DNA from: a virus
Virus record (IMG/VR): IMGVR_UViG_3300045988_079978
DNA length: 60,599 nucleotides
Strand: one strand, 5' to 3'
Under the pieces are notes generated by a model. That model did no database searches. It had not been told where the DNA came from and was given only the letters and a program-made list of their open reading frames with translations. Shown piece by piece: positions 1 to 60,599 of the stretch. A program made the position numbers and the translations under genes. Each line of letters starts with the position of its first letter. The first letter of the stretch is position 1.

Positions 1-18
1 ATTTTTTTTATTTAACTC
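1..18 (-). repeat. Crossover site S1 (sense GAGTTAAATAAAAAAAAT) inside the expressed tail-fibre gene; the same bases as 60501-60518
   Basis: It shares the invariant core TTAAATAAAAA (plus 5-15) with sites at 58095-58105, 58743-58753 and 59860-59870. The core encodes L-N-K in frame. Confidence 0.7.
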
Positions 19-99
19 ATTAATAACTAACGCATCACAGAAAAAGCCAGGTTCCGTAACGAGACTGGCTTCCTCCAGGCTAACAACCCTGTTTGCGTA
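1..99. repeat. Terminal overlap, identical to 60501-60599; the genome unit is 60,500 bp and assembled as a circle
   Basis: Base-by-base comparison of the first and last 99 nt shows identity. An ORF reads in frame across the junction. Confidence 0.95.
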
Positions 100-291
100 A
101 ATATCATTGATTGCCTTTCTTTCCTCAATAATATGCTTTGCTGTATATGAGCTTCCTTCTTGATCATAAGCGGTCATATCTTGCAATGATATAGTTCCAT
201 CTTTATTTACTGTTTGTTTATATTTTCGCTGAGTATTTACATCGGAAAGGATTTCATCATTGAAATCCAAGGATAAAGGATTGAACTCCAT
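1..291 (-). CDS. Tail fibre / receptor-binding protein, constant N-terminal part (97 aa, MEFNPLSLDF...VINELNKKN); the ORF continues across the junction into 60500-60177
   Basis: ATG at 291-289. 291 nt is exactly 97 codons with no stop. Codons 60500-60486 (DYDPT) join in frame to the listed ORF 60177-60485. The gene is last in the tail module. Confidence 0.75.
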   Translation of the reverse strand, partial: MEFNPLSLDFNDEILSDVNTQRKYKQTVNKDGTISLQDMTAYDQEGSSYTAKHIIEERKAINDIYANRVVSLEEASLVTEPGFFCDALVINELNKKN

Positions 292-3325: not shown

Positions 3326-6300
3326 CTACGTTGGCGAAAAAGAAAAGCCCGTATTCCTACGCGCTTTTGATATCTGCTTATCCATTCTTTTTCCATCCAT
3401 ATTTACGCTTGTTTCTTTCTTAAGAAGTAACTCCTGGTATTCAATGATTGTTCTTAAGAGTGAATTGGTTTCATCATTCGCTCTTGAAACTCCGTTACTT
3501 ACCGAATCGACAATCTGCTGATTATTAACTACCGCAGAACGGTTCCCAATCTTTCCAACAAGCTCCGGACCACTCTCTCTTGCATAGAACATTTCTCCGA
3601 CTTTCGGGAAACCGCCGTTTGCATATCCATGACCTTTCCATCCTCTTTCGAGACTGCCATATTGAGCCAGCGTATATCTGATAGCTGCTAAAATATTGGA
3701 CATCGGGTCATAGATGTTTTTGTCGAACCCTTTCATAGCGTAAGCACGGAATGTAGGGTCAATAACTTGCATTAAGCCTTTGGACGGAATACCCATCTTT
3801 GCATTAATGTCCCAGTTATTTATTGCATTTGGATTTCCACCTGATTCAGATTTCATTTGCATAAGCAATCTGTTTAAGTTTGCTTCTGTGTATTGCCCTG
3901 TTAATTCCAGAGCTTTCTTTGCAGTAGCACGCCACTGCTCCACACCGGCAGATGCCTTGTAATTTACACTACCGCCAAAGTCTTTCAGTTTGTCTTTGAT
4001 GAATTTCGTAGCAATATCTACGGTACCACCAACCGCATTTTTCGCCATTGACAATCCCGGTTCCAGATAGTTTGAAAAGTCTGTGAACTTATCAATCGCC
4101 ATCTGAACCAATTTCTTAGGATCACTGATATAATCAGCAATATTCCCCGTGAAGTCTTTGAATTTCGCCCACGCACCTCCAAAAAAATCTCCGATTCCTT
4201 TTTTGAAATGTGGCATATTCATCAATGAAGCGGTCTGATCTGCTGGAAGAACTTTCGTACCTTTTGGCATTGGCAACATGACATTACGTCCCTTTGGAAT
4301 GATTGTCTTTCCGTTCGGGAACTGTACCATCTCACGATATGTGCTACCAGCTTGATCGTTCACGATACCTACAGTATCATGTGATACACCATTTGTACCG
4401 TTAGCATACTTGTCCAGCTGTGCAACATTGAAGTGGTTCTTTCCGCCACCAAGCTTTTCATACACCCAGTTCACACCGTTGAGGATAGCTTTCATTGCCC
4501 CGATGATAGGTTTTTTGATTTCCTTTCCAATACCCTTGAAGAAATTTCCAATCTTTCCGAATGAATCTGTTACGCCTTTGTAAGCAGTCTGGAATGTACT
4601 CTTAAACCATCCAGATACAGATTTCATGTTGTTCTGAATATCAGATTTGCGTCCACCGAACCATTTGCCAATGTCAGAGAATTTATCAGTTACGGCTTTT
4701 CTTGCTGCCCCAAATTTATCACCAAACCATTCCCCTACATCGGAGAATTTGTCAACAATCTGGTCTTTTAATTCTCCAAAGAATTTAAGTACTTTTGCGA
4801 GATTAGAAACAACTCCATTATATAGTCCGGCCATAATATAGCCACCCTGTTCAGCCATGATAGTTGACGGGGAATGAATACCAAACGCTTCTTTGAAGCC
4901 TGTAATAAATGGTGTGAATATATGATCTATTATCCATGTACCTATATTGCTTAATGCATCGGCAATTCCTTTGAAGATTCCAGCAACGATATTCCCTCCG
5001 CACTCTTCAATCTTGCCTTGGAAATATTTTTTAGCCGCTTCTACAGCATTTACTATGGCTCCACCAATTAGCGATCCGATATCGAATAATGCTTTTACAG
5101 CAGCGCCAATTAATTCACCAACGCTTTTAAACCATCCGTTCCAATCGAAATTAATCAAAAAGTCTGAAATACCCGTTGCAATATCGGTTATAAGCTTTTT
5201 CCAATCTGTACCTTCTAATGCTCCAGAAACTAAATCAAATAAAATCTTAGGAAGTGTAAACAAAACCTCGAAAGACTTTGTAATGATTCCTTTCCAATCA
5301 ATATTAGAAATAAATTGTCCGAAAGATGATCCTAATTGATTCCAGTCAGTGTTCTGCATAAATGCTAATAATGCATCAAGAAGTCCTTTTGCGAGGTCGC
5401 CAAGCCTTGCTCCATTACCAGACCAATCGAAATCGGAAATAAATTGATTTACACTATCTGATAAGCTCTTGCCAAAATTACTCCAATCAAAAGTCCTGGC
5501 TGCTTCGCCTATTGTTGCAAAAATAGCGTTCCAATTTTGCGCTATAAAGTGTCCTATTCCAGGCCAATCAACTGTGTTCACAGCGCCATTTGCCCCATCA
5601 CCAATAAACTTGCCAACTTCATCCCATTTTGTACTGTCTAAAAACGAATTTGCCAAATCCAGTCCGGTATTGAAAGCTTCGCCGATAGTATTTCCAATCG
5701 ACTCCCCAAGTCCATCAACTTCAACGAATCCGTTTATGAATGTTCCAAAAGATTTTCCGATTTTTTCTGCAGTTTCTTGTATGGGGTTCCAATCAATTCC
5801 ATCCAAAGAGTTTTTTAATTTTGTTCCAACAATTGATCCGATTTCTGTAAAGTCAGCCTTTTTCCATGCATCCTTTACTTTCTTTGCAAAATCAGACACA
5901 TTTTTATCAATAGATGATGTTTCGAACATTTCTGATGGGGACGGGCCTGTATACTTTTCCGATCCAGAATCTTGATTTGCAGAATCACTACTTGGTTGGA
6001 TAACGTGTAATTCATCTATTCCAAGAGTATAATTGGTTAAATCCTTAGCATCTTTTTTTGCTTTTTTAAGTTTATCTCCTGTTTTTGAAGCACTATTCCC
6101 TGTTGATTCTAAGCTTTTCCCATAATCAAACCATGCTTTTTTAGCTTGTACGACTTTTGACTTTCCAGTCAATGAGCCCATGAACTGTCCAACTGCATTT
6201 AATGCCCCGGCAAGCATATCAAGAAATTTCGATATATACGGTGCAACTACATTGACAATTGGTGCGAAAGCAGCGGCCCACGCATTTTTTAGATATAACA

Positions 6301-7813
6301 AAGAAGTAACCATACCAGATATGCTCTTGTTGTATGCAGAGCTATACTGCACCAGATTGTCAGAACCGGCTTTAATTGCTTCTTTTATTTGGCTGATCGC
6401 TCCGAAAACAGTGGAAAATAAAATGGAAGAGCCAATCATTTTTTTCCACGACATTCCTTTATTGGAATCTTTTTGCAATAATCCGAGCTTGTCCTTTGCC
6501 TTAGAAATCACAGATCCTAATACTTTAAAAGGATTTACAGACGCTTTAGCAATCTGCGGAAGTTTCGAAAGCCCCTTGATCGACAATTTCGCAAATGACA
6601 GTCCCAATTTCCCGGCATTTTTAATAAGTGCTTTTAACGCAGTTCCAGCTATCTGCAACTTCGAGATTTCTTCTTTTGCTATAATGCTTTTTGCTTTTTC
6701 TCTCATTGAACGGTTGTATTCTTTCCGCCGTTCTATTACTACAGTAAGTTTCTGCGCTACTGCATCATATTCTTCGTCACCCTCACCAAGTCCTTGCCTT
6801 TTTAAACCTTCAAGTTCCTTTTTTAAGGCTTTTATTTGATCTGAAAAATTATTTGCCGCAGCATTTGCCTTTCCAAAAGAGTCAACGTATTCTTGAATGG
6901 CTTCTGTGTCGTAATCTCCATTTTCTTTCATAGGTGGAATATCATTGAATTTCCCCCCTTGAGTTGAAGTTCCCGTTTCTGGCAACTTTAACATTTCCAT
7001 GAAATTTTTTGTATAATTTCCGAATCCACCCTTTGTAAGACCGCTCTTTATTTCGCCAACTTTATTTTTCAAATAATCAAATTTACTAGAAATTTTTGAT
7101 ATATTCCCACCTTTATCTATGTTAGATATTTCATTAGAAACATCTTCGATAGAATCGGAAACTTTCTCTGCATTTTCACCGAGAGATTCCATACTAAGTT
7201 TTTCTTGATTTAATTCGCTGACAACATTCCCATCTCTTTCAATCGTAAACGATGGCTGCTCTACTGATAACCCATCAATTGCTTTTTTATATACATTCGC
7301 TTCATTGGTAGCTTTTTGGATATCGTAAATTATGCTTTCAAAGGTCTTCCCTAGGTGATCAGTTCCTTCAATTGCAATTTTTTTGTTTAATCTATCCTTT
7401 AATCTCGCTGCAGTAGCTTCTGAGTTTTTCAATCCTTTTTCAAGCTCCGATACATCCATACCGGAAACATCAAGATTCAATCCCGCATTGCTGTATTTTT
7501 TATAGATAGAATCCAATGATTTTTCTGTGTATTTCAAGTCTGAACGATTCGTCCGAACTTTGATTTCTTTTTTGTCTAAGTCGTTCTTCTTTTTAATTGC
7601 ATTGTCAATAGCACTTGTGAATTTATCAAACCCACTTAAATCAAACTCTCCAATTTCTCCGATGCCGGATGCAAGAGCAACAACTTTTTCAAGACTATCT
7701 GCGATTCGATTTAATCTTCTTTCCATTCCTGAAAGTGATCTGTTTGCTCGATTTGATTCTGTTTCAATTGCTATCTCAAGTCTGTCAATTTCATCTGGCA
7801 TTATTGCTCTCAC
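3326..7813 (-). CDS. Tail tape measure protein with a C-terminal lytic transglycosylase domain
   Basis: 1495 aa and directly after the G/GT chaperone pair. It has periodic DW/W repeats (TDWNQ, IDWKG, FDWNG). SLT-like motif: MKSESGGNPNAINNWDINAKMGIPSKGLMQV...AAIRY. Confidence 0.9.
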   Translation of the reverse strand: MRAIMPDEIDRLEIAIETESNRANRSLSGMERRLNRIADSLEKVVALASGIGEIGEFDLSGFDKFTSAIDNAIKKKNDLDKKEIKVRTNRSDLKYTEKSLDSIYKKYSNAGLNLDVSGMDVSELEKGLKNSEATAARLKDRLNKKIAIEGTDHLGKTFESIIYDIQKATNEANVYKKAIDGLSVEQPSFTIERDGNVVSELNQEKLSMESLGENAEKVSDSIEDVSNEISNIDKGGNISKISSKFDYLKNKVGEIKSGLTKGGFGNYTKNFMEMLKLPETGTSTQGGKFNDIPPMKENGDYDTEAIQEYVDSFGKANAAANNFSDQIKALKKELEGLKRQGLGEGDEEYDAVAQKLTVVIERRKEYNRSMREKAKSIIAKEEISKLQIAGTALKALIKNAGKLGLSFAKLSIKGLSKLPQIAKASVNPFKVLGSVISKAKDKLGLLQKDSNKGMSWKKMIGSSILFSTVFGAISQIKEAIKAGSDNLVQYSSAYNKSISGMVTSLLYLKNAWAAAFAPIVNVVAPYISKFLDMLAGALNAVGQFMGSLTGKSKVVQAKKAWFDYGKSLESTGNSASKTGDKLKKAKKDAKDLTNYTLGIDELHVIQPSSDSANQDSGSEKYTGPSPSEMFETSSIDKNVSDFAKKVKDAWKKADFTEIGSIVGTKLKNSLDGIDWNPIQETAEKIGKSFGTFINGFVEVDGLGESIGNTIGEAFNTGLDLANSFLDSTKWDEVGKFIGDGANGAVNTVDWPGIGHFIAQNWNAIFATIGEAARTFDWSNFGKSLSDSVNQFISDFDWSGNGARLGDLAKGLLDALLAFMQNTDWNQLGSSFGQFISNIDWKGIITKSFEVLFTLPKILFDLVSGALEGTDWKKLITDIATGISDFLINFDWNGWFKSVGELIGAAVKALFDIGSLIGGAIVNAVEAAKKYFQGKIEECGGNIVAGIFKGIADALSNIGTWIIDHIFTPFITGFKEAFGIHSPSTIMAEQGGYIMAGLYNGVVSNLAKVLKFFGELKDQIVDKFSDVGEWFGDKFGAARKAVTDKFSDIGKWFGGRKSDIQNNMKSVSGWFKSTFQTAYKGVTDSFGKIGNFFKGIGKEIKKPIIGAMKAILNGVNWVYEKLGGGKNHFNVAQLDKYANGTNGVSHDTVGIVNDQAGSTYREMVQFPNGKTIIPKGRNVMLPMPKGTKVLPADQTASLMNMPHFKKGIGDFFGGAWAKFKDFTGNIADYISDPKKLVQMAIDKFTDFSNYLEPGLSMAKNAVGGTVDIATKFIKDKLKDFGGSVNYKASAGVEQWRATAKKALELTGQYTEANLNRLLMQMKSESGGNPNAINNWDINAKMGIPSKGLMQVIDPTFRAYAMKGFDKNIYDPMSNILAAIRYTLAQYGSLERGWKGHGYANGGFPKVGEMFYARESGPELVGKIGNRSAVVNNQQIVDSVSNGVSRANDETNSLLRTIIEYQELLLKKETSVNMDGKRMDKQISKARRNTGFSFSPT

Positions 7814-52712: not shown

Positions 52713-52885
52713 GAATAAAAAATCCCGGTGTGTATCACGGCACCGGGATTCTGACATCACCTTATGGGGGATAATGTCAAGATGTTTCAATGAAAGTATA
52801 TCATCCCTCGTACAGTTACGCAAGCGGAACGTTTGTTCCTTGCTGGCTGTTATTTTTATACTTAATTTTAAGGAGGATGAATAAA

Positions 52886-54595
52886 ATGACAAATCAAAAA
52901 GAAAAAATAGTAGCATTATACGTCCGTGTATCTACCGGTTATCAAATAGACAAGGACTCTCTTCCATTCCAGAAGAAAGAACTGAAAGCATATTGCGAAC
53001 ACGTGCTGCACGTTGATAAAAAGCGAATTGAGGTATTTGAGGACGCGGGTAAATCTGGTAAGAACACGAAACGACCTGCGTTTGAACGTATGATGGAAAA
53101 AGTAAAAGCGGGCCTTGTTTCTCATGTAATCGTGTATAAGATTGACCGCATTACCAGAAACCTTGTGGACTTCTCTCTTATGTATGATGATTTCAAATAC
53201 AACAATGTTACGTTCATATCTCTGAACGAGCAATTTGACACCTCTAGTGCCATCGGAGAAGCTATCCTTAAGATTATACTGGTGTTCGCCGAATTAGAGC
53301 GCAAATTGACATCTGAGCGTGTCACAGACGTAATGATAGGTAGGGCACAGAGCGGGCAATGGAATGGCGCAAGGGTTCCCTACGGATGGGACTGGGATGC
53401 AGAAAACAAATGCCCTGTACATTCCAAGAAAGAAGCACCTTATGCTAAAGCCATGTACCAGATGTATCTGGACGGTGGTTCTTCTGTAACCATCCGGGAT
53501 TATAACAACTCTCACAATATTCCTACTAAGCGTGGTGGTGAATGGACATCTAAGACTGTTGCTGATTTTCTGCGGAATCCGATCAATAAAGGTGCCTATC
53601 GCTACAACTACAGGGAAAGTGCCAGGGGGAAAAGAAAAGCTGATGAAGAAGTTATCTATATGGAGGGCGTATTTCCACCATTGATAGCCCCGGAAATATG
53701 GAATGAAGTAAATAGACGCATGGATGCAAATCATACACGAAAGAATACTTCTGCCATGCATCCGATTAGAAAGAACTGTAATGTATTTGCCGGACTGATC
53801 GTGTGTGGTAAGTGTGGATCGAATTATCAAGTAACTGCCAAGGATAGGCGTAGAGGAAATGGATTCAGACCATCCTCTTATGCTTGTACCGGAAAGTACC
53901 AGAAAAAACATTGCGATAACTTGAATGTCAGCGACGTCAAGATTGGTCCGTTCATGATAAATTATATAGCAGCTATTATTGATGCATCTAAAAGTAGGAG
54001 ATTCATCAAAGATACTGAATCATTGGAAAGAGTTATACTCTCTCATATTGATTTCACAGACGTGGCCGGAATATCTGAATCAAGCTTACAGGATACAATT
54101 GATTTGCTATATGGTCGTTCCGGTACAGAAACTTTATCTGGTAAACCAGTTAGTAAAGATGGTAAAAATACTGATACAGCGGAAAAGAAAAAAGAGTTGC
54201 AAGAAAAACTCCAAAAAACAGATCGTGCTTTGGAACGATTGAAAAAGGCATACCTCTTCGATGATGATGCAATGGACGAAAAAGAATTTCTTGAAATGAA
54301 AACAAAATTAGAGGTTGATAAGGTGAAATTGGAAAATAGCATTAAGAGCCTAGACTCATCTTCTATCTCAGAAAATGTTGATCAGGCAGCATTCATTAAG
54401 TCCGCATCTCAATTCCTTATCTCGCACAAAATTAACAGTGGCGGGAATATAGAGTATTCCGAACTCGCAATGATGGATGAAGAAGCAATGAAAACACTTA
54501 TGAACTCCATTATTGACCATATCACAGTTATGGACAGGCATATTACAGAGATTGTTTTCAAGAATGGATTAACCCACACATTATTATACAGATAG
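52886..54595 (+). CDS. int: Large serine recombinase (integrase)
   Basis: Resolvase-type N-terminus VALYVRVSTGYQ, recombinase domain, zinc ribbon CGKCGSNY...YACTG, and a C-terminal coiled coil. Confidence 0.9.
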   Translation: MTNQKEKIVALYVRVSTGYQIDKDSLPFQKKELKAYCEHVLHVDKKRIEVFEDAGKSGKNTKRPAFERMMEKVKAGLVSHVIVYKIDRITRNLVDFSLMYDDFKYNNVTFISLNEQFDTSSAIGEAILKIILVFAELERKLTSERVTDVMIGRAQSGQWNGARVPYGWDWDAENKCPVHSKKEAPYAKAMYQMYLDGGSSVTIRDYNNSHNIPTKRGGEWTSKTVADFLRNPINKGAYRYNYRESARGKRKADEEVIYMEGVFPPLIAPEIWNEVNRRMDANHTRKNTSAMHPIRKNCNVFAGLIVCGKCGSNYQVTAKDRRRGNGFRPSSYACTGKYQKKHCDNLNVSDVKIGPFMINYIAAIIDASKSRRFIKDTESLERVILSHIDFTDVAGISESSLQDTIDLLYGRSGTETLSGKPVSKDGKNTDTAEKKKELQEKLQKTDRALERLKKAYLFDDDAMDEKEFLEMKTKLEVDKVKLENSIKSLDSSSISENVDQAAFIKSASQFLISHKINSGGNIEYSELAMMDEEAMKTLMNSIIDHITVMDRHITEIVFKNGLTHTLLYR

Positions 54596-54603
54596 CAAAA
54601 AAG

Positions 54604-54634
54604 CCCCGAAAAATCAATGCTTTCGGGGTTTTTT
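54604..54634 (+). terminator. Intrinsic terminator after the integrase gene
   Basis: Stem CCCCGAAA/TTTCGGGG followed by TTTTTT. Confidence 0.85.
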
Positions 54635-54653
54635 GTATGTTCAATATAAATGC

Positions 54654-54866
54654 TTAATAATTCTCTATTACCGGGTTCATCTGACAACCAAAGGTTACGG
54701 TAGCAAAGAAAAGGGGGCGTCCCAATTTTTCAGACTCTTCCTTTACATATTTTCTTGCTTTTTTGATAAAATAATACTGTCTTTCGGTATCATTAGTTGG
54801 TGGTTCTTTGCTTATGTCAATTTGTTCTAACTTTTTTTCGAATTCTTCATTTGAATTATTAAGCAT
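54654..54866 (-). pseudogene. 5' fragment of a miaB-like (radical-SAM methylthiotransferase) gene; marks attP
   Basis: It ends ...RQYYFIKKARKYV...LFFATVTFGCQMN and then diverges (PVIENY, stop). TxGCQMN is the MiaB/RimO N-terminal cysteine motif. Confidence 0.6.
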
Positions 54867-54935
54867 TTTTCAATGTCCTTTCACAACAATAATGTTATAA
54901 TATTATACTTTAGTATAGAACATTTTTCAATGCTT

Positions 54936-56974: not shown

Positions 56975-57385
56975 CTACCTCCATTTGTAATGTGGTATAT
57001 CTTCGCCCCACAATATATGTCTTATCCAATCATCCAAGACAACCGCCACTGCCGATAAGAAAAACCATATTACGGTAAATGGTAAGCATATCTGACCAAG
57101 TAAATTGAACGGCATATTGCTGTAATCCCATACATTCCAACCAAGCAATAGATTCACGATGCAACCACATACAAATTCCAATGCAGTAATCACAATCGCA
57201 CCGATCAACATCTGCCTTACCAGTGGCATCTTCCGGCATTTTTCGTTGATACAGCCAATCAAAAAGAACGCCAATCCACCGACTATAAACATTGTCCAGT
57301 GGCTACGTCCTCTTGCGGTAAGCTCTATAAACACATAAATCAGACCGCCAATCACAAACAGAATCAGCGGTCTTAATTTCTTCAT
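56975..57385 (-). CDS. Polytopic membrane protein (CmpB / DUF1113-like)
   Basis: Four TM helices and the motif LLGWNVWDYSNMPFNLLGQICL. Confidence 0.5.
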   Translation of the reverse strand: MKKLRPLILFVIGGLIYVFIELTARGRSHWTMFIVGGLAFFLIGCINEKCRKMPLVRQMLIGAIVITALEFVCGCIVNLLLGWNVWDYSNMPFNLLGQICLPFTVIWFFLSAVAVVLDDWIRHILWGEDIPHYKWR

Positions 57386-58062
57386 GACTTCTGAGCCAAC
57401 ATTGCTTTCAGTGGCTCAGACTGATACACTTCTGGAATAGTCATGCCGTAAGTAACCTGTTCAACCTCTTCTTTGCTTTCCAGAGAACGAATATAAATGC
57501 GGAGATCACGGAAATAAGTTATATGCCATGTTACATAGGATAGTGCAGACGAAGTGATTTTTGCCATATCTGCATTGCTGTAGAATTTGCAGTGTTCATC
57601 TTCATCAGAAGTATGCCAAGGAATATTCTCAGCTCCGATTGCGACCTGAGCCTGTAATCCAACAAGGCTAGTCTGGTCGCGCTCAGTCAATGAGAAATGT
57701 TCTGTACTGCCATCAGACAGAGTAACATCAACTCCCTTTGCTATGAGCTTCTGCTGTATGTCGTTCATCTCTGAAACCTTAGATTCTTTTACTTCATCAA
57801 GACTGATTTCCGGTTCTGGTGTCGGTCCCGGTTCAATCGGTTCAACATATACGCTTCCATCGTCAGACAAGATAAACCCATCTTCCAGTTCACGGTATAA
57901 TGTTGTGAACCCATCATATTTTCCAAATACATTACCAGCATTATTCAGTAGGTGAAAACCGGATGTATTTGGTTCTGTACCGGTTATCTCGATAAGATGT
58001 ACACTTAATTTCTTTACAGTTGCTGCAACCGTTTCTGATTGATCTAAAAAAAGTATGTTCAT
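57382..58062 (-). CDS. DUF4376-like protein (tail-fibre assembly / chaperone-like)
   Basis: The C-terminal half (DVTLSDGSTEHFSLTERDQTSLVGL...ITSSALSYVTWHITYFRDL) resembles DUF4376. It lies directly downstream of the fibre cassettes. Confidence 0.45.
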   Translation of the reverse strand: MNILFLDQSETVAATVKKLSVHLIEITGTEPNTSGFHLLNNAGNVFGKYDGFTTLYRELEDGFILSDDGSVYVEPIEPGPTPEPEISLDEVKESKVSEMNDIQQKLIAKGVDVTLSDGSTEHFSLTERDQTSLVGLQAQVAIGAENIPWHTSDEDEHCKFYSNADMAKITSSALSYVTWHITYFRDLRIYIRSLESKEEVEQVTYGMTIPEVYQSEPLKAMLAQKS

Positions 58063-58076
58063 TTTTCAACCTTTCC

Positions 58077-58109
58077 AAAGAGGATTTTATTCAGTTAAAT
58101 AAAAATATA
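58077..58109 (+). repeat. Crossover site S4: a 33-bp perfect inverted repeat of 58739-58771
   Basis: AAAGAGGATTTTATTCAGTTAAATAAAAATATA. Internally it has the arms ATTTTAT / ATAAAAT around the 8-bp spacer TCAGTTAA. Confidence 0.9.
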
Positions 58110-58415
58110 GCCTGCTCACCCTCTGTTAAAAGGCAAGAAACTCTTATATCTTTTCAGAAAAATGCAAAGTATAAGATAGAGCATACTGGACAAATCCAGT
58201 TTGCAGCTGCTTTTTCGTCAACCGCCGGATATTGCAGAATTTATGTATATAATAGTTCCGGCGAAATCGTGTACAGAGAACAACTTAATCCAGCACCTGT
58301 CCCGGCTAACGAGGTAACTACTGGTCAGCTCCAAGTTTACGATGGTTGGGAATTTTCTGCAGAATCTTATAATGCTTTAGTAGCAAATACGCCGAAGTAT
58401 ACGCTTACTTATTAA
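58110..58415 (+). other. Silent tail-fibre C-terminal cassette D (ACSPSVKRQETLISF...TPKYTLTY)
   Basis: Open frame continuous with the L-N-K of S4. There is no RBS or start of its own. Its stop overlaps the stop of cassette C (TTAA). Confidence 0.65.
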
Positions 58416-58738
58416 GCGGATGGATATACATATTCCAACCTATAATTAACTCGCATTGGCCCCTCTCGATTTGCAGGATAAAAATACTGGTATATTGCAC
58501 CATTCCATACCTCCGGGGCATAAAAATGCACTTCTTGTGCCACAGAGTCTCCATTGTACGTTTTTATACTAAGCCGTGGTGCAACATAATCGTTTCCGAA
58601 CAAGCTTTTTAGCTGTTCGAGAGAAAATAGTGCTGCATACCCAGTGTTCATGGCAATGTCAACTACCATCGTGCCAGATACCACCTTTACCAGTCCGCCG
58701 TATAGAGTGTATATTTGCTGTTCGTCTGTATTTTTAAT
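58412..58738 (-). other. Silent tail-fibre C-terminal cassette C (IIKNTDEQQIYTLYGG...LEYVYPSA)
   Basis: Open frame continuous with S3. It converges on cassette D. Confidence 0.65.
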
Positions 58739-58771
58739 TATATTTTTATTTAACTGAATAAAATCCTCTTT
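58739..58771 (-). repeat. Crossover site S3, the inverted partner of S4
   Basis: Exact reverse complement of 58077-58109. Confidence 0.9.
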
Positions 58772-58844
58772 TTTAATATTATTTTTATACAACAAAAACA
58801 CCCGATCAGTAACCGGATGTTTCCGAAATTATATTATCGTGCGC

Positions 58845-59813
58845 TTATGCGCTTAGATATTTTTTGTGGTGGTGTTGTACACTTTCCTGGTCTACAAGGC
58901 AGTACATCATTGTTGTCTCTGTATTAGAATGTCCGGCCAACAACGATGCTTCTTGCAGTGGCATCCCTCTGTTAAGCGCATTGGTCAATGATGTTCCACG
59001 GAATCGGTGCGGAAAAGCCCGAATTCCAAATTGTCTGCCGGTTCGCCGAATCATATCTTCTATTCCAGACTTGGATAGTCGATCATTCGGTTTTCGCAAG
59101 CTGACAAACAATGCCGGATTGCTGTCGGTTCGGCTCTGCAAATATTCTTGTAAATACATATTCGTCCGCTCATTAATATATACCGTCCTTTCTTTTCTAC
59201 CTTTTCCATACACTATCAAATCCTTTGTAGACCATCGTATATCTTCTATATTAAGCCGTGCAAGTTCAGATACTCTGACCGCTGTTGAATAAAGGAATTC
59301 CATCATAGCCTTATCACGTAAGGTTTTACATCCTCTTAACAACTGCTCTCTTTCTGCGTCAGAAAACGGACGTTTCACACGCTTTTCAGTTTTTATCTTT
59401 TCAACGAGAACTATCGGGTTCTTTTGTATTCTGTTTCTGTTGCGAAGCCACCCGAAGAAACTACTGTATATTGCTCGAATGCCTTTCAAAGTGCTGTTTT
59501 TAATACTTCTCGTAATTTTATACGCTCTCATATAGTTGGATATGTCAGAACTATTAATATTCTGTACCGACTTATTTATGTACGACAATAGACGATTTAA
59601 TTCATACCGATATTGATGTATTGTATCTGGTGTTCGTCCCTCCAATGCTTTGGACATAAGAAAATCTTCCATATCGATACGCCAACTGTCATTTTGTATC
59701 ATCAATTCATTTTCGCACATTACTACATGTAGAACAGATCTTAATTCGCTCAGTTGATATTCATTCAAGACATCTTGCATCTTTCTTAATACTTCCATAA
59801 TTTTTCTTTCCAT
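58845..59813 (-). CDS. Tyrosine recombinase (XerC/D-Rci-like), putative tail-fibre invertase
   Basis: Motifs AVRVSEL (R), YGKGRKER (K), FPHRFRGT (HxxR) and LAGHSNTETTMMY (H...Y). It is embedded between the two cassette pairs. Confidence 0.85.
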   Translation of the reverse strand: MERKIMEVLRKMQDVLNEYQLSELRSVLHVVMCENELMIQNDSWRIDMEDFLMSKALEGRTPDTIHQYRYELNRLLSYINKSVQNINSSDISNYMRAYKITRSIKNSTLKGIRAIYSSFFGWLRNRNRIQKNPIVLVEKIKTEKRVKRPFSDAEREQLLRGCKTLRDKAMMEFLYSTAVRVSELARLNIEDIRWSTKDLIVYGKGRKERTVYINERTNMYLQEYLQSRTDSNPALFVSLRKPNDRLSKSGIEDMIRRTGRQFGIRAFPHRFRGTSLTNALNRGMPLQEASLLAGHSNTETTMMYCLVDQESVQHHHKKYLSA

Positions 59814-59856
59814 CTGCTACACTCCTTTTTTGTTTTAGTGTAGCAGATGGCTTTCT

Positions 59857-59874
59857 GAATTAAATAAAAATAGA
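59857..59874 (+). repeat. Crossover site S2 (GAATTAAATAAAAATAGA)
   Basis: It contains the invariant core at 59860-59870, encoding E-L-N-K-N in the cassette frame. Confidence 0.7.
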
Positions 59875-60180
59875 ACTTATAATTTTGATAGCGTCTCTTG
59901 GACGAACCCTACGTATTCGATAACGGAAAAATCCGGAGTAATTTATATTGATTATTATTGCGATCCAGGTGGCGGTGTGGGAGGACATAGCTATCTTGTT
60001 GCTACATTACCTAAAAATATTGCCCCAAATCACCTCATTAGAGCATCAGCGTGGGCGGCAGACGAAGCCGGTGTACGTAACGCTGCATCCGTATCTATTG
60101 ATACAGACGGTAGTATAAAAATTGTTTCAGAAAACAGATTTTACGAAGCAGGTTTTGCTGCTTCATATTGCATTAATTAG
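59857..60180 (+). other. Silent tail-fibre C-terminal cassette B (ELNKNRTYNFDSVSWTNPTYSI...AASYCIN)
   Basis: The frame is open upstream of the listed GTG ORF (59977) back through S2. There is no RBS. Its stop overlaps the stop of cassette A (TTAG). Confidence 0.65.
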
Positions 60181-60500
60181 GATTTGATGGTTAATATTCC
60201 AAAGCCTACTAACGATACATCGTTCGAATAATTTGTACAAACTAAATATGCACCGTGATTAGTTTCCATTTTTATTCTTCCGTATCCAACAACTACATTG
60301 GCAACTTGCATACAAATTGAAAGCGTTTGACTAAATTCAAGGTTAAACGGAATTCCAGCCATAACGAGACCGCCATTAATGTTTATAACCCCACCTTTCA
60401 TTATATTTTCCATTTCAACATATATATGATTATGATCTATATGTCTGTACGTTAAGTTCCAACCATTATTATTGTAAGTTTGCATTGTTGGATCATAATC
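60177..60500 (-). CDS. Expressed tail-fibre C-terminal cassette A (DYDPTMQTYNNNGWN...GILTIKS), the 3' part of the wrap-around gene starting at 291
   Basis: In frame with 291-1 across the circular junction. Confidence 0.75.
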   Translation of the reverse strand, partial: DYDPTMQTYNNNGWNLTYRHIDHNHIYVEMENIMKGGVININGGLVMAGIPFNLEFSQTLSICMQVANVVVGYGRIKMETNHGAYLVCTNYSNDVSLVGFGILTIKS

Positions 60501-60599
60501 ATTTTTTTTATTTAACTCATTAATAACTAACGCATCACAGAAAAAGCCAGGTTCCGTAACGAGACTGGCTTCCTCCAGGCTAACAACCCTGTTTGCGTA
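60501..60599. repeat. Terminal overlap, a duplicate of 1-99
   Basis: Identical sequence. Confidence 0.95.

Follow-up and report, generated by a model that had tools for sequence, protein, structure and literature searches.

Several recombination systems are known that exchange one end of a gene by inverting DNA between short repeats. The shufflon of plasmid R64 has seven sites, the serine invertases Gin, Cin, Pin and Min work with an enhancer and Fis, and the hsdS inversion loci of restriction systems include the phase-variable pneumococcal ivr/CreX type. In phages, the Rin shufflon of Bifidobacterium prophages is built on 11-bp rix sites and, by its authors' claim, was the first tyrosine invertase reported from a phage (Mavrich et al. 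2018, PMC6109161), and Rin-type loci were also described in Eggerthella lenta prophages (2022, PMC8778435). For a BV01-like Phocaeicola vulgatus phage, read data showed all configurations of a tail-fibre shufflon (2026 preprint, PMC13596623). Here, we describe a related locus in the virus record IMGVR_UViG_3300045988_079978. The window, meaning the whole analysed stretch of 60,599 nucleotides, is a circular assembly of 60,500 bp with an end repeat of 99 bp (1-99 = 60501-60599), and it belongs to a temperate gut phage of Dorea. Judged from sequence comparison, the locus is very probably a four-site, four-cassette shufflon in the tail module of this phage, in which a 322-amino-acid (aa) Xer-like tyrosine recombinase would exchange the tip of a short tail protein.

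Tail-protein gene, tip cassettes and crossover cores

The tail-protein (fibre) gene lies on the minus strand and, like site S1 described below, crosses the circular join. It starts with an ATG at position 291, runs to position 1, continues at position 60500 and ends with a stop codon at 60177. Read through the contig join in this way, it encodes 204 aa, in agreement with an earlier note on this DNA, made from the sequence alone, which had proposed a constant N-terminus of 97 aa followed by a tip of 107 aa. The constant 5' part (1..291, minus strand) comprises codons 1-97, and the same N-terminus is found on other tips in public proteins. It is followed by cassette A (60177..60500, minus strand), the currently expressed tip of 107 aa plus stop. 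The two parts meet at an E-L-N-K linker, which is encoded by the 11-bp core TTAAATAAAAA.

Three further tips are silent. Cassette B (59871..60180, plus strand; 102 aa after LNKN) is arranged tail-to-tail with A, and cassette D (58106..58415, plus strand; 102 aa) tail-to-tail with cassette C (58412..58742, minus strand; 109 aa after LNKN). The stop codons overlap as TTAG in the A/B pair (60177-60180) and as TTAA in the C/D pair (58412-58415), which matches the two tail-to-tail pairs originally proposed. The four tips had also been described as mutually dissimilar, and pairwise BLASTP found no significant similarity among them (best E 0.096). All three silent cassettes lack a promoter, are intact and keep the reading frame. 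The proposal that they lack both a start codon and a ribosome-binding site held only in part: inspection by eye revealed no Shine-Dalgarno sequence before their frames, but cassettes C and D fall in open reading frames (ORFs) with GTG/TTG starts (129 and 131 aa) that are called by gene callers. The GTG of the 129-aa cassette C ORF is located within a terminator-like hairpin at 58787..58834.

Exact copies of the core TTAAATAAAAA are present at four positions of the circle and nowhere else in the genome. In the linear window this corresponds to five matches, with S1 repeated at 60505-60515, against 0.26 expected, and none of 100 shuffles reached five. When one mismatch was allowed, 11 matches were found against 8.6 expected, which is no excess over chance; the signal is therefore carried by the exact, clustered copies. 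All four cores lie within one 2.5-kb locus, each in the L-N-K frame and each with an open frame of 102-109 codons behind it, so that exact search and translation bore out both the positions and the common frame reported before. Site S1 (5-15 = 60505-60515, minus strand) lies inside the fibre gene and defines slot 1, the expressed slot. Sites S2 (59860-59870, plus strand), S3 (58743-58753, minus strand) and S4 (58095-58105, plus strand) define slots 2, 3 and 4, respectively, each with an exact copy of the core. The orientations from S1 to S4 are -,+,-,+, and the sites bound three DNA segments, with the recombinase gene lying between the two cassette pairs.

S4 and S3 are enclosed by the arms of a perfect 33-bp inverted repeat (58077-58109 and 58739-58771, respectively). 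This repeat was recovered as first described, but the perfect 7-bp arms proposed within it were not, as they agree at 6/7 positions (ATTTTAT..ATAAAAA). Across the sites, the conserved stretch measures about 17 bp and reads T[GC]A[GA]TTAAATAAAAA[AT]A, with a slot-specific left flank and a cassette-specific right flank. S3 and S4 share an extra 18 bp beyond this stretch, and the sequence shared by S1 and S2 is only 11-13 bp long. The flanks of slots 3 and 4 (58077-58094 and 58754-58771) form an extended inverted repeat with GAGGA/AGGAGG, which is also present in a sister family at 72% identity despite its differing cores (e.g. L019:5102, 5671) and which might provide the recombinase with a second arm or serve in regulation. 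The same sister family has two in-frame TAA codons immediately 5' of the silent cassettes in slots 2-4.

In the proposed mechanism, the recombinase would synapse two inverted cores, exchange strands within the core and thereby flip the DNA in between. Recombination of S1xS2 or of S3xS4 would flip one pair, S1xS4 would flip the entire block with the recombinase included, and S2xS3 would flip the recombinase segment alone. Enumeration of these inversions gives 16 reachable arrangements and four possible proteins, in which the constant N-terminus (N) is fused to one of the tips (N::A, N::B, N::C and N::D). As slot 1 alone has a start codon, hairpin terminators after the fibre and recombinase genes would probably silence the other slots, and switching is probably kept rare by a stable hairpin that covers the start codon of the recombinase gene.

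The role of the tips was approached by structure prediction. An AlphaFold (AF2) model of N::C, built from 61 sequences, contains a confident beta-sandwich at residues about 112-205 (pLDDT 72-93), with the N-terminus at low confidence as a monomer. A model of N::A was unusable (pLDDT 46) and was set aside. Among predicted viral structures, the best match to the N::C model was an 'L-shaped tail fiber protein' (E 1.5e-7), with further structural and tail proteins ranking behind it. We infer that the tips would bind receptors and set host range, given that the gene lies among the tail genes, that its tips are modular and that Rin, Mu and P1 offer analogous cases.

Rearranged relatives and competing explanations

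Public contigs were compared with the window block by block, and the near-identical set was defined by a recombinase segment 99.6-100% identical in DNA. At least four arrangements exist among relatives that are 99-100% identical, and every breakpoint lies within the cores. The window type (N::A <B / rec / leader::C <D) is represented by L143 and L147 and partially by L151. In the swapped type (N::C <D / rec / leader::A <B), the A/B and C/D modules are exchanged around a recombinase segment that is 99.9-100% identical. This type comprises at least 10 distinct contigs among the matches listed, with about 13 similar places besides, and its block boundaries at 5-23, 59860-72, 58743-61 and 58095-107 fall in the cores. 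One swapped contig, L149, is 97.8-100% identical to the window in all blocks. In two further contigs, L152 and L153, the A/B module is inverted (leader::B <A, 99.4-99.65% identity), and in L158 the slot-2 flank is joined to A, the reciprocal junction of an S1xS2 inversion.

Three contigs required separate judgement. L158 was rejected as proof of N::B because its positions 1-268 are chimeric, and only its slot 2::A junction was used. In this part, tape-measure sequence (window 6786-6519) is joined to the middle of cassette B via an 8-nt overlap, most likely as an assembly chimera. The ends of L157 and L158 at position 29-30 of the 33-bp repeat were likewise not accepted as a sign of a mixed population, since an assembler with k=31, the word size that we take Logan assemblies to use, would be expected to break at this repeat anyway. 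L154 (882-1721) consists of N::D, then only the 3' half of C, then the 226-aa gene that borders the locus; it has a single core and is without the recombinase. Its deletion ends inside cassette C and not at a core, for which reason it was rejected as a site-specific deletion product, and from its sequence it looks like a locked, decayed derivative of a shufflon.

When related contigs are taken together, slot 1 is found with A, C, D and E, slot 2 with B, D, F and A, slot 3 with A, B, C and E, and slot 4 with A, B, D and A'. Three or four cassettes occur at each slot flank, and A is present at every slot. The nucleotide immediately 5' of the core tracks the slot and the one immediately 3' of it tracks the cassette, which places the exchange inside the 11 bp. 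In L062 and L063, whose recombinases are 99% and 94% identical to that of the window, the four common cassettes occupy different slots and orientations; L063 carries a different fibre N-terminus.

The same picture emerges at the protein level, where a search with the fibre returned 122 relatives. N-termini 98-100% identical to the constant part are joined to other tips at ELNK/EINK in P0016-P0018 (100%) and P0020 (98%), and P0017 and P0018 carry the identical N-terminus on tip C. Tip D is joined to a 76%-identical N-terminus in P0065, to related N-termini in P0145 and P0182 and, at 100% identity, to a 276-aa-type N-terminus in P0141. In full-length fibres with other N-termini, cassette B forms the C-terminus (P0143 at 99%, P0178, P0179 and P0214), and in P0140 it stands behind the slot-3 leader. 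This short leader, MFLLYKNNIKKEDFIQLNK, precedes a 100% identical A in P0004; exact leader::B and leader::D fusions assembled from the window's own letters are absent from a collection of 15 billion proteins. Of the prediction that all four tips can be placed on the constant N-terminus, the fusions to C, with an identical N-terminus, and to D, with the 76%-identical one, were thus recovered, and the fusion to B was not found.

More distant loci were sought in collections of viruses, genomes and metagenomes. This yielded about 130 loci whose recombinases are 53-74% identical, more than 100 related loci being recovered from human-gut metagenomes, and TTAAATAAAAA occurs in none of these approximately 130 loci. 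Relatives with a 61-74% identical recombinase have other cores, for example CT[GT]AAT[TA]AAATAGCAA, and a layout of fwd, rev, rec, fwd, rev with nearly equal spacing. By these sequences, the core covaries with the recombinase clade. Among the 79 loci with 276-aa-type fibres, 11 have the recombinase turned around with respect to the fibre. In L083, from the sister family, everything from S1 to S4 lies in reverse orientation between fibre and holin, which is the large inversion predicted by the model. Taken together, near-identical genomes rearranged only at the cores, the N::C and N::D fusions and the covariation of core and enzyme support the central claim of the earlier note, namely that multi-site inversion by the neighbouring tyrosine recombinase exchanges the tip of the tail protein. 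As a separate observation, seven loci (L002, L003, L004 and four others) contain a silent cassette D at slot 2 (e.g. L002:4932) in which the core's run of A is longer by one base, TTAAATAAAAAA-TATAGCC; should this base move with the cassette, D would be out of frame behind the fibre N-terminus.

Modules with the same core are also found outside such loci. Orphan two-site modules are present in unrelated smaller prophages (L159:5014-5682, L160:1398-2064 and L161:10511-11301), which feature a 276-280-aa fibre, an SPP1-like portal and an r1t-type holin. The A/B module is 99.55% identical in nucleotides in L159, and the C/D module is 92.8% identical in an unrelated phage with a 276-280-aa fibre; in both cases homology stops at the cores. 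ELNK is the invariable junction at which cassettes A, B and D follow N-termini of several unrelated families. Imperfect inverted repeats of about 40 bp lie on either side of the sites in the orphan modules. A search of the late region of about 20 kb in these prophages found no Xer-like recombinase, and the invertase for the orphan modules may be encoded at another place in those phages or may work in trans. Tentatively, and with a probability that we rate as rather low, the core in the E-L-N-K linker would serve as a docking site shared across unrelated Dorea/Lachnospiraceae phages, with Xer-like recombinases that invert their own cassettes, act in trans on orphan modules of co-resident prophages and exchange tips between phages. 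This suggestion derives from the 99.55% identical A/B module, the same cassettes on several N-termini and the orientation-preserving swap. If it were true, gut phages would draw on a community-level pool of receptor-binding tips, comparable to an integron.

Several points weigh against the inversion shufflon as we propose it. All evidence of rearrangement comes from comparing assemblies between samples, and the exact fusions N::B, N::C and N::D built from the window are absent from the 15-billion-protein collection. N::B on this N-terminus was never found in public data, where only the reciprocal slot 2::A junction is present, on L158 with its chimeric far end. Concerning function, the tail protein matches no Pfam or PHROG family, the N::C model has no significant match among solved structures (tailspike C-terminal domains, E 0.15-0.3), and the label 'receptor-binding' rests on gene position, the predicted-structure match and analogy. 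Furthermore, two states dominate among close relatives, with the same module orientation in both. Getting from one to the other takes four inversions, or else an excision (S1xS3) and a re-integration (S2xS4), and for this reason inversion may not be the sole reaction. One could go further and regard cassette exchange by the recombinase, through excision and re-integration or a double crossover at the cores, as the main reaction within and between phages, with inversion as a side reaction, similar to recombinase-mediated cassette exchange or an integron. Such a scheme would explain in two steps what is the commonest difference among close relatives, the A/B-C/D swap with orientation kept, and it would accommodate both the modules shared with unrelated phages up to the cores and the attachment of A, B and D to several N-terminal families at ELNK. 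We nevertheless consider it improbable: plain inversions are seen for A/B in L152, L153 and L158 and for the whole block in L083 of the sister family, neither a circular intermediate nor a core-bounded deletion was found (the deletion in L154 ends inside C), and the sharing of modules between phages could have accumulated over long times.

A different account would deny that the locus switches at all. The arrangements would then be a fixed evolutionary mosaic, formed by ordinary recombination at a conserved linker, and the recombinase would do another job such as dimer resolution. The dominance of few arrangements in public assemblies fits this account, as do the Xer-like recombinases that occupy the same tail/lysis position in cultured Clostridia phages without obvious cassettes, and the phages that have a two-site module and no such recombinase in their late region of about 20 kb. 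Yet S1 and S2 share only 11-13 bp, which is too short for RecA-type recombination, and the breakpoints always fall there in genomes that are otherwise 99-100% identical. The silent cassettes are kept promoterless, in frame and intact, as for a maintained reservoir, the core changes along with the recombinase clade, and the recombinase is always positioned between the sites and in the sequence neighbourhood of hsdS-locus recombinases, all of which makes a mosaic highly improbable. The probability that the differing arrangements are mere assembly artefacts caused by repeats is close to nil. Two Logan contigs (L157 and L158) do end within the 33-bp inverted repeat, and L158 has the chimeric join to the tape-measure gene. 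However, the S1/S2 repeats of 11-13 bp are far below the assembler word size, so that junction-spanning words must be present in the reads, and identical arrangements were obtained repeatedly from independent samples and with independent assemblers, on contigs of up to about 106 kb. Under the preferred reading, multi-site inversion at the cores, the reaction is presumably catalysed by the 322-aa recombinase, and switching would take place within a lineage on short time scales.

The recombinase, its control elements and the surrounding genome

The recombinase gene (58845..59813, minus strand) encodes a 322-aa Xer-like tyrosine recombinase and putative invertase. The protein matches the Pfam family Phage_integrase (2e-32) and is composed of a SAM-like N-domain and a catalytic domain, and a domain search found no match to an arm-binding domain. 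Alignment to XerD identifies the complete catalytic set R180, K207, H269, R272, H295 and Y304, confirming the full set that had been read from the sequence. Against NCBIfam, the enzyme matches XerA with 8e-60 and 202.6 bits, under the 220-bit cutoff, and against the Protein Data Bank (PDB) it matches the XerC-like structure 4a8e (6e-31).

The enzyme had previously been called 'Rci-type', an assignment that the searches did not sustain. No Rci-specific match was obtained in NCBIfam, the PDB or the plasmid matches, the presence of an Rci-specific model in these libraries being unconfirmed, and none of the best 15 of more than 5000 matching plasmid records is annotated as Rci or shufflon. The protein is Xer-like by sequence, and its closest annotated relatives are recombinases of Firmicute hsdS loci. 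These are plasmid genes named 'xerA', with 35-40% identity over 98-99% of the length in the best matches, several of which are annotated as adjoining or overlapping genes for restriction subunit S (hsdS). We inspected two such type I restriction loci, on a plasmid of L. salivarius [Ligilactobacillus] (L164, 2337-5524) and on Lactococcus pJM2A (L165, 2287-5614), with recombinases 37-39% identical. In both, hsdS half-genes are arranged around the recombinase gene in tail-to-tail pairs with a 4-nt overlap, which is the layout of the phage locus. By pairwise identity and layout, the recombinase is thus grouped with the hsdS-locus recombinases, and, at the level of sequence, a virion protein is served here by the architecture and kind of enzyme found in Firmicute hsdS loci.

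Among GenBank phages, the best match to the recombinase is 39% identical, and neither a DNA search with the locus nor a protein search with the fibre produced a match. Terrisporobacter phage TPELB_ph1 (L155, 17645-18640) and Clostridium phage phiCp-D (L156, 21639-22616) encode 30-33% identical Xer-like 'integrases' between the tail genes and the holin, and TPELB_ph1 carries a second integrase. Both were considered as cultured examples and dropped, as no convincing repeated sites or silent cassettes were found in them.

Three hairpins on the minus strand accompany the genes of the locus. A perfect 14-bp hairpin surrounds the ATG of the recombinase (59810..59850; -23.7 kcal/mol, z -7.8), with the Shine-Dalgarno sequence of the gene at the edge of the loop. 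The hairpin is kept in L062, with one mismatch, and in L063, with one G-U change. It probably limits synthesis of the recombinase; alternatively, it may end read-through from the fibre gene. Downstream of the recombinase stop codon, a terminator-like hairpin is followed by a U run (58787..58834; -18.7 kcal/mol, z -3.6), and this element should halt transcription ahead of slot 3. A further terminator-like hairpin follows directly after the stop codon of cassette A (60142..60167; -12.7 kcal/mol, z -3.7), although the regional number of sites of this kind is at chance level. A promoter scan of the locus gave no excess over chance.

The phage integrates by a different enzyme. A large serine recombinase of 601 aa with Resolvase, Recombinase and Zn_ribbon domains (52790-54595, plus strand) is the only serine recombinase in the genome, lies about 3.5 kb from the shufflon and has its attP crossover near 54672. 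In integrated copies, the junction between phage and host is found at about 54672, within the Dorea miaB gene. This substantiates the suggestion of a separate serine integrase next to attP. The possibility that the tyrosine recombinase is itself the integrase was examined as a potential refutation; it is the serine enzyme that sits at the prophage junction, and the 322-aa tyrosine recombinase is therefore not needed for integration. The junction lies about 195 nt into miaB (window about 54600-54870; L001:9933-10127), and the phage has its own copy of the first approximately 65 miaB codons beside the serine integrase. Given this copy, integration appears to leave the host gene unbroken and to exchange its 5' end for the phage's version.

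The late genes on the minus strand are listed from the tape measure (3326-7813), which is followed by tail genes of 129, 748 and 134 aa and then by the 204-aa tail-protein gene. The recombinase block comes next, and after it the 226-aa DUF4376 gene, a membrane protein, a holin and an endolysin. The 226-aa tail gene (57382..58062, minus strand) is assigned to PHROG 1348 'tail fiber protein' and marks the invariant right-hand edge of the shufflon. As it comes after the locus, the fibre gene is not the last tail gene, contrary to what had been assumed. The same phage is contained in human stool assemblies (SRS015065; SAMN00036283) as contigs of 60,502, 60,555 and 60,580 bp.

Comparison with known systems

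The earlier note regarded a multi-site tyrosine-recombinase switch in the fibre of a Firmicute siphophage as unusual. As a claim of novelty this does not hold, as shufflons of phage receptor-binding proteins were published in 2018 (PMC6109161), 2022 (PMC8778435) and 2026 (PMC13596623). In the literature on Lachnospiraceae phages we found no description of such a system, and no published Firmicutes example of a phage tyrosine-recombinase shufflon was found. The present locus would extend these systems from Actinobacteria and Bacteroidota to Firmicutes. Little is understood of the Lachnospiraceae phages of the gut, and what determines their host range is mostly unknown; here, a short unannotated tail protein is a likely specificity determinant, of which one phage genome can encode four versions. 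Such switches complicate metagenomic host prediction and strain tracking. For phage engineering, they offer compact natural pairs of recombinase and site, with 11-bp cores, and swappable receptor-binding modules.

By description, the locus shares with Rin a phage-encoded, armless Xer-like tyrosine recombinase distinct from the integrase, and an 11-bp asymmetric repeat before each promoterless C-terminal cassette of one constant N-terminal receptor-binding-protein gene. In both systems, the cassettes are mutually dissimilar and the carrier is a temperate gut siphophage. Rin consists of an array of small variable genes with five possible full-length alleles, and rin stands at the end opposite the constant gene. 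In contrast, two tail-to-tail pairs flank the recombinase here, and the enzyme gene lies inside the invertible DNA. The cores also differ, with TTCCCTAACCC in Rin and TTAAATAAAAA here, as do the host phyla, Actinobacteria and Firmicutes, respectively. The BV01-like phage resembles the present one in having a multi-cassette shufflon over the distal end of a tail-fibre gene, with an adjoining recombinase and short directional repeats; it differs in its Bacteroidota host, its 10-bp motif TGGGAGAACT and its three cassettes, which yield six variants.

The R64 shufflon (Rci / sfx / pilV) likewise relies on multi-site inversion by a tyrosine recombinase to swap the C-terminus of an adhesin with a constant N-terminus, and its sites, too, combine a conserved core with a variable flank. 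R64 is a conjugative plasmid with the recombinase beside its shufflon, whereas the putative enzyme described here is a 322-aa Xer-like protein encoded inside a shufflon with four sites on a phage. As in Mu (Gin), P1 (Cin), e14 (Pin) and p15B (Min), inversion would exchange the C-terminal part of a tail-fibre gene, and Min is also multi-site; those enzymes are small serine invertases, whereas a tyrosine recombinase adjoins the cassettes here. With the hsdS loci, finally, the locus has in common a constant 5' part and exchangeable 3' parts that determine specificity. Enzyme and layout tie it to the restriction loci that bear such recombinases, whose target is the DNA-specificity subunit of a defence system and not a virion protein, and whose cassettes are unrelated to those of the phage. 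As a whole, the traits that set this locus apart are the recombinase inside the invertible DNA, the hsdS-type architecture and enzyme, and the tip modules held in common with unrelated phages.

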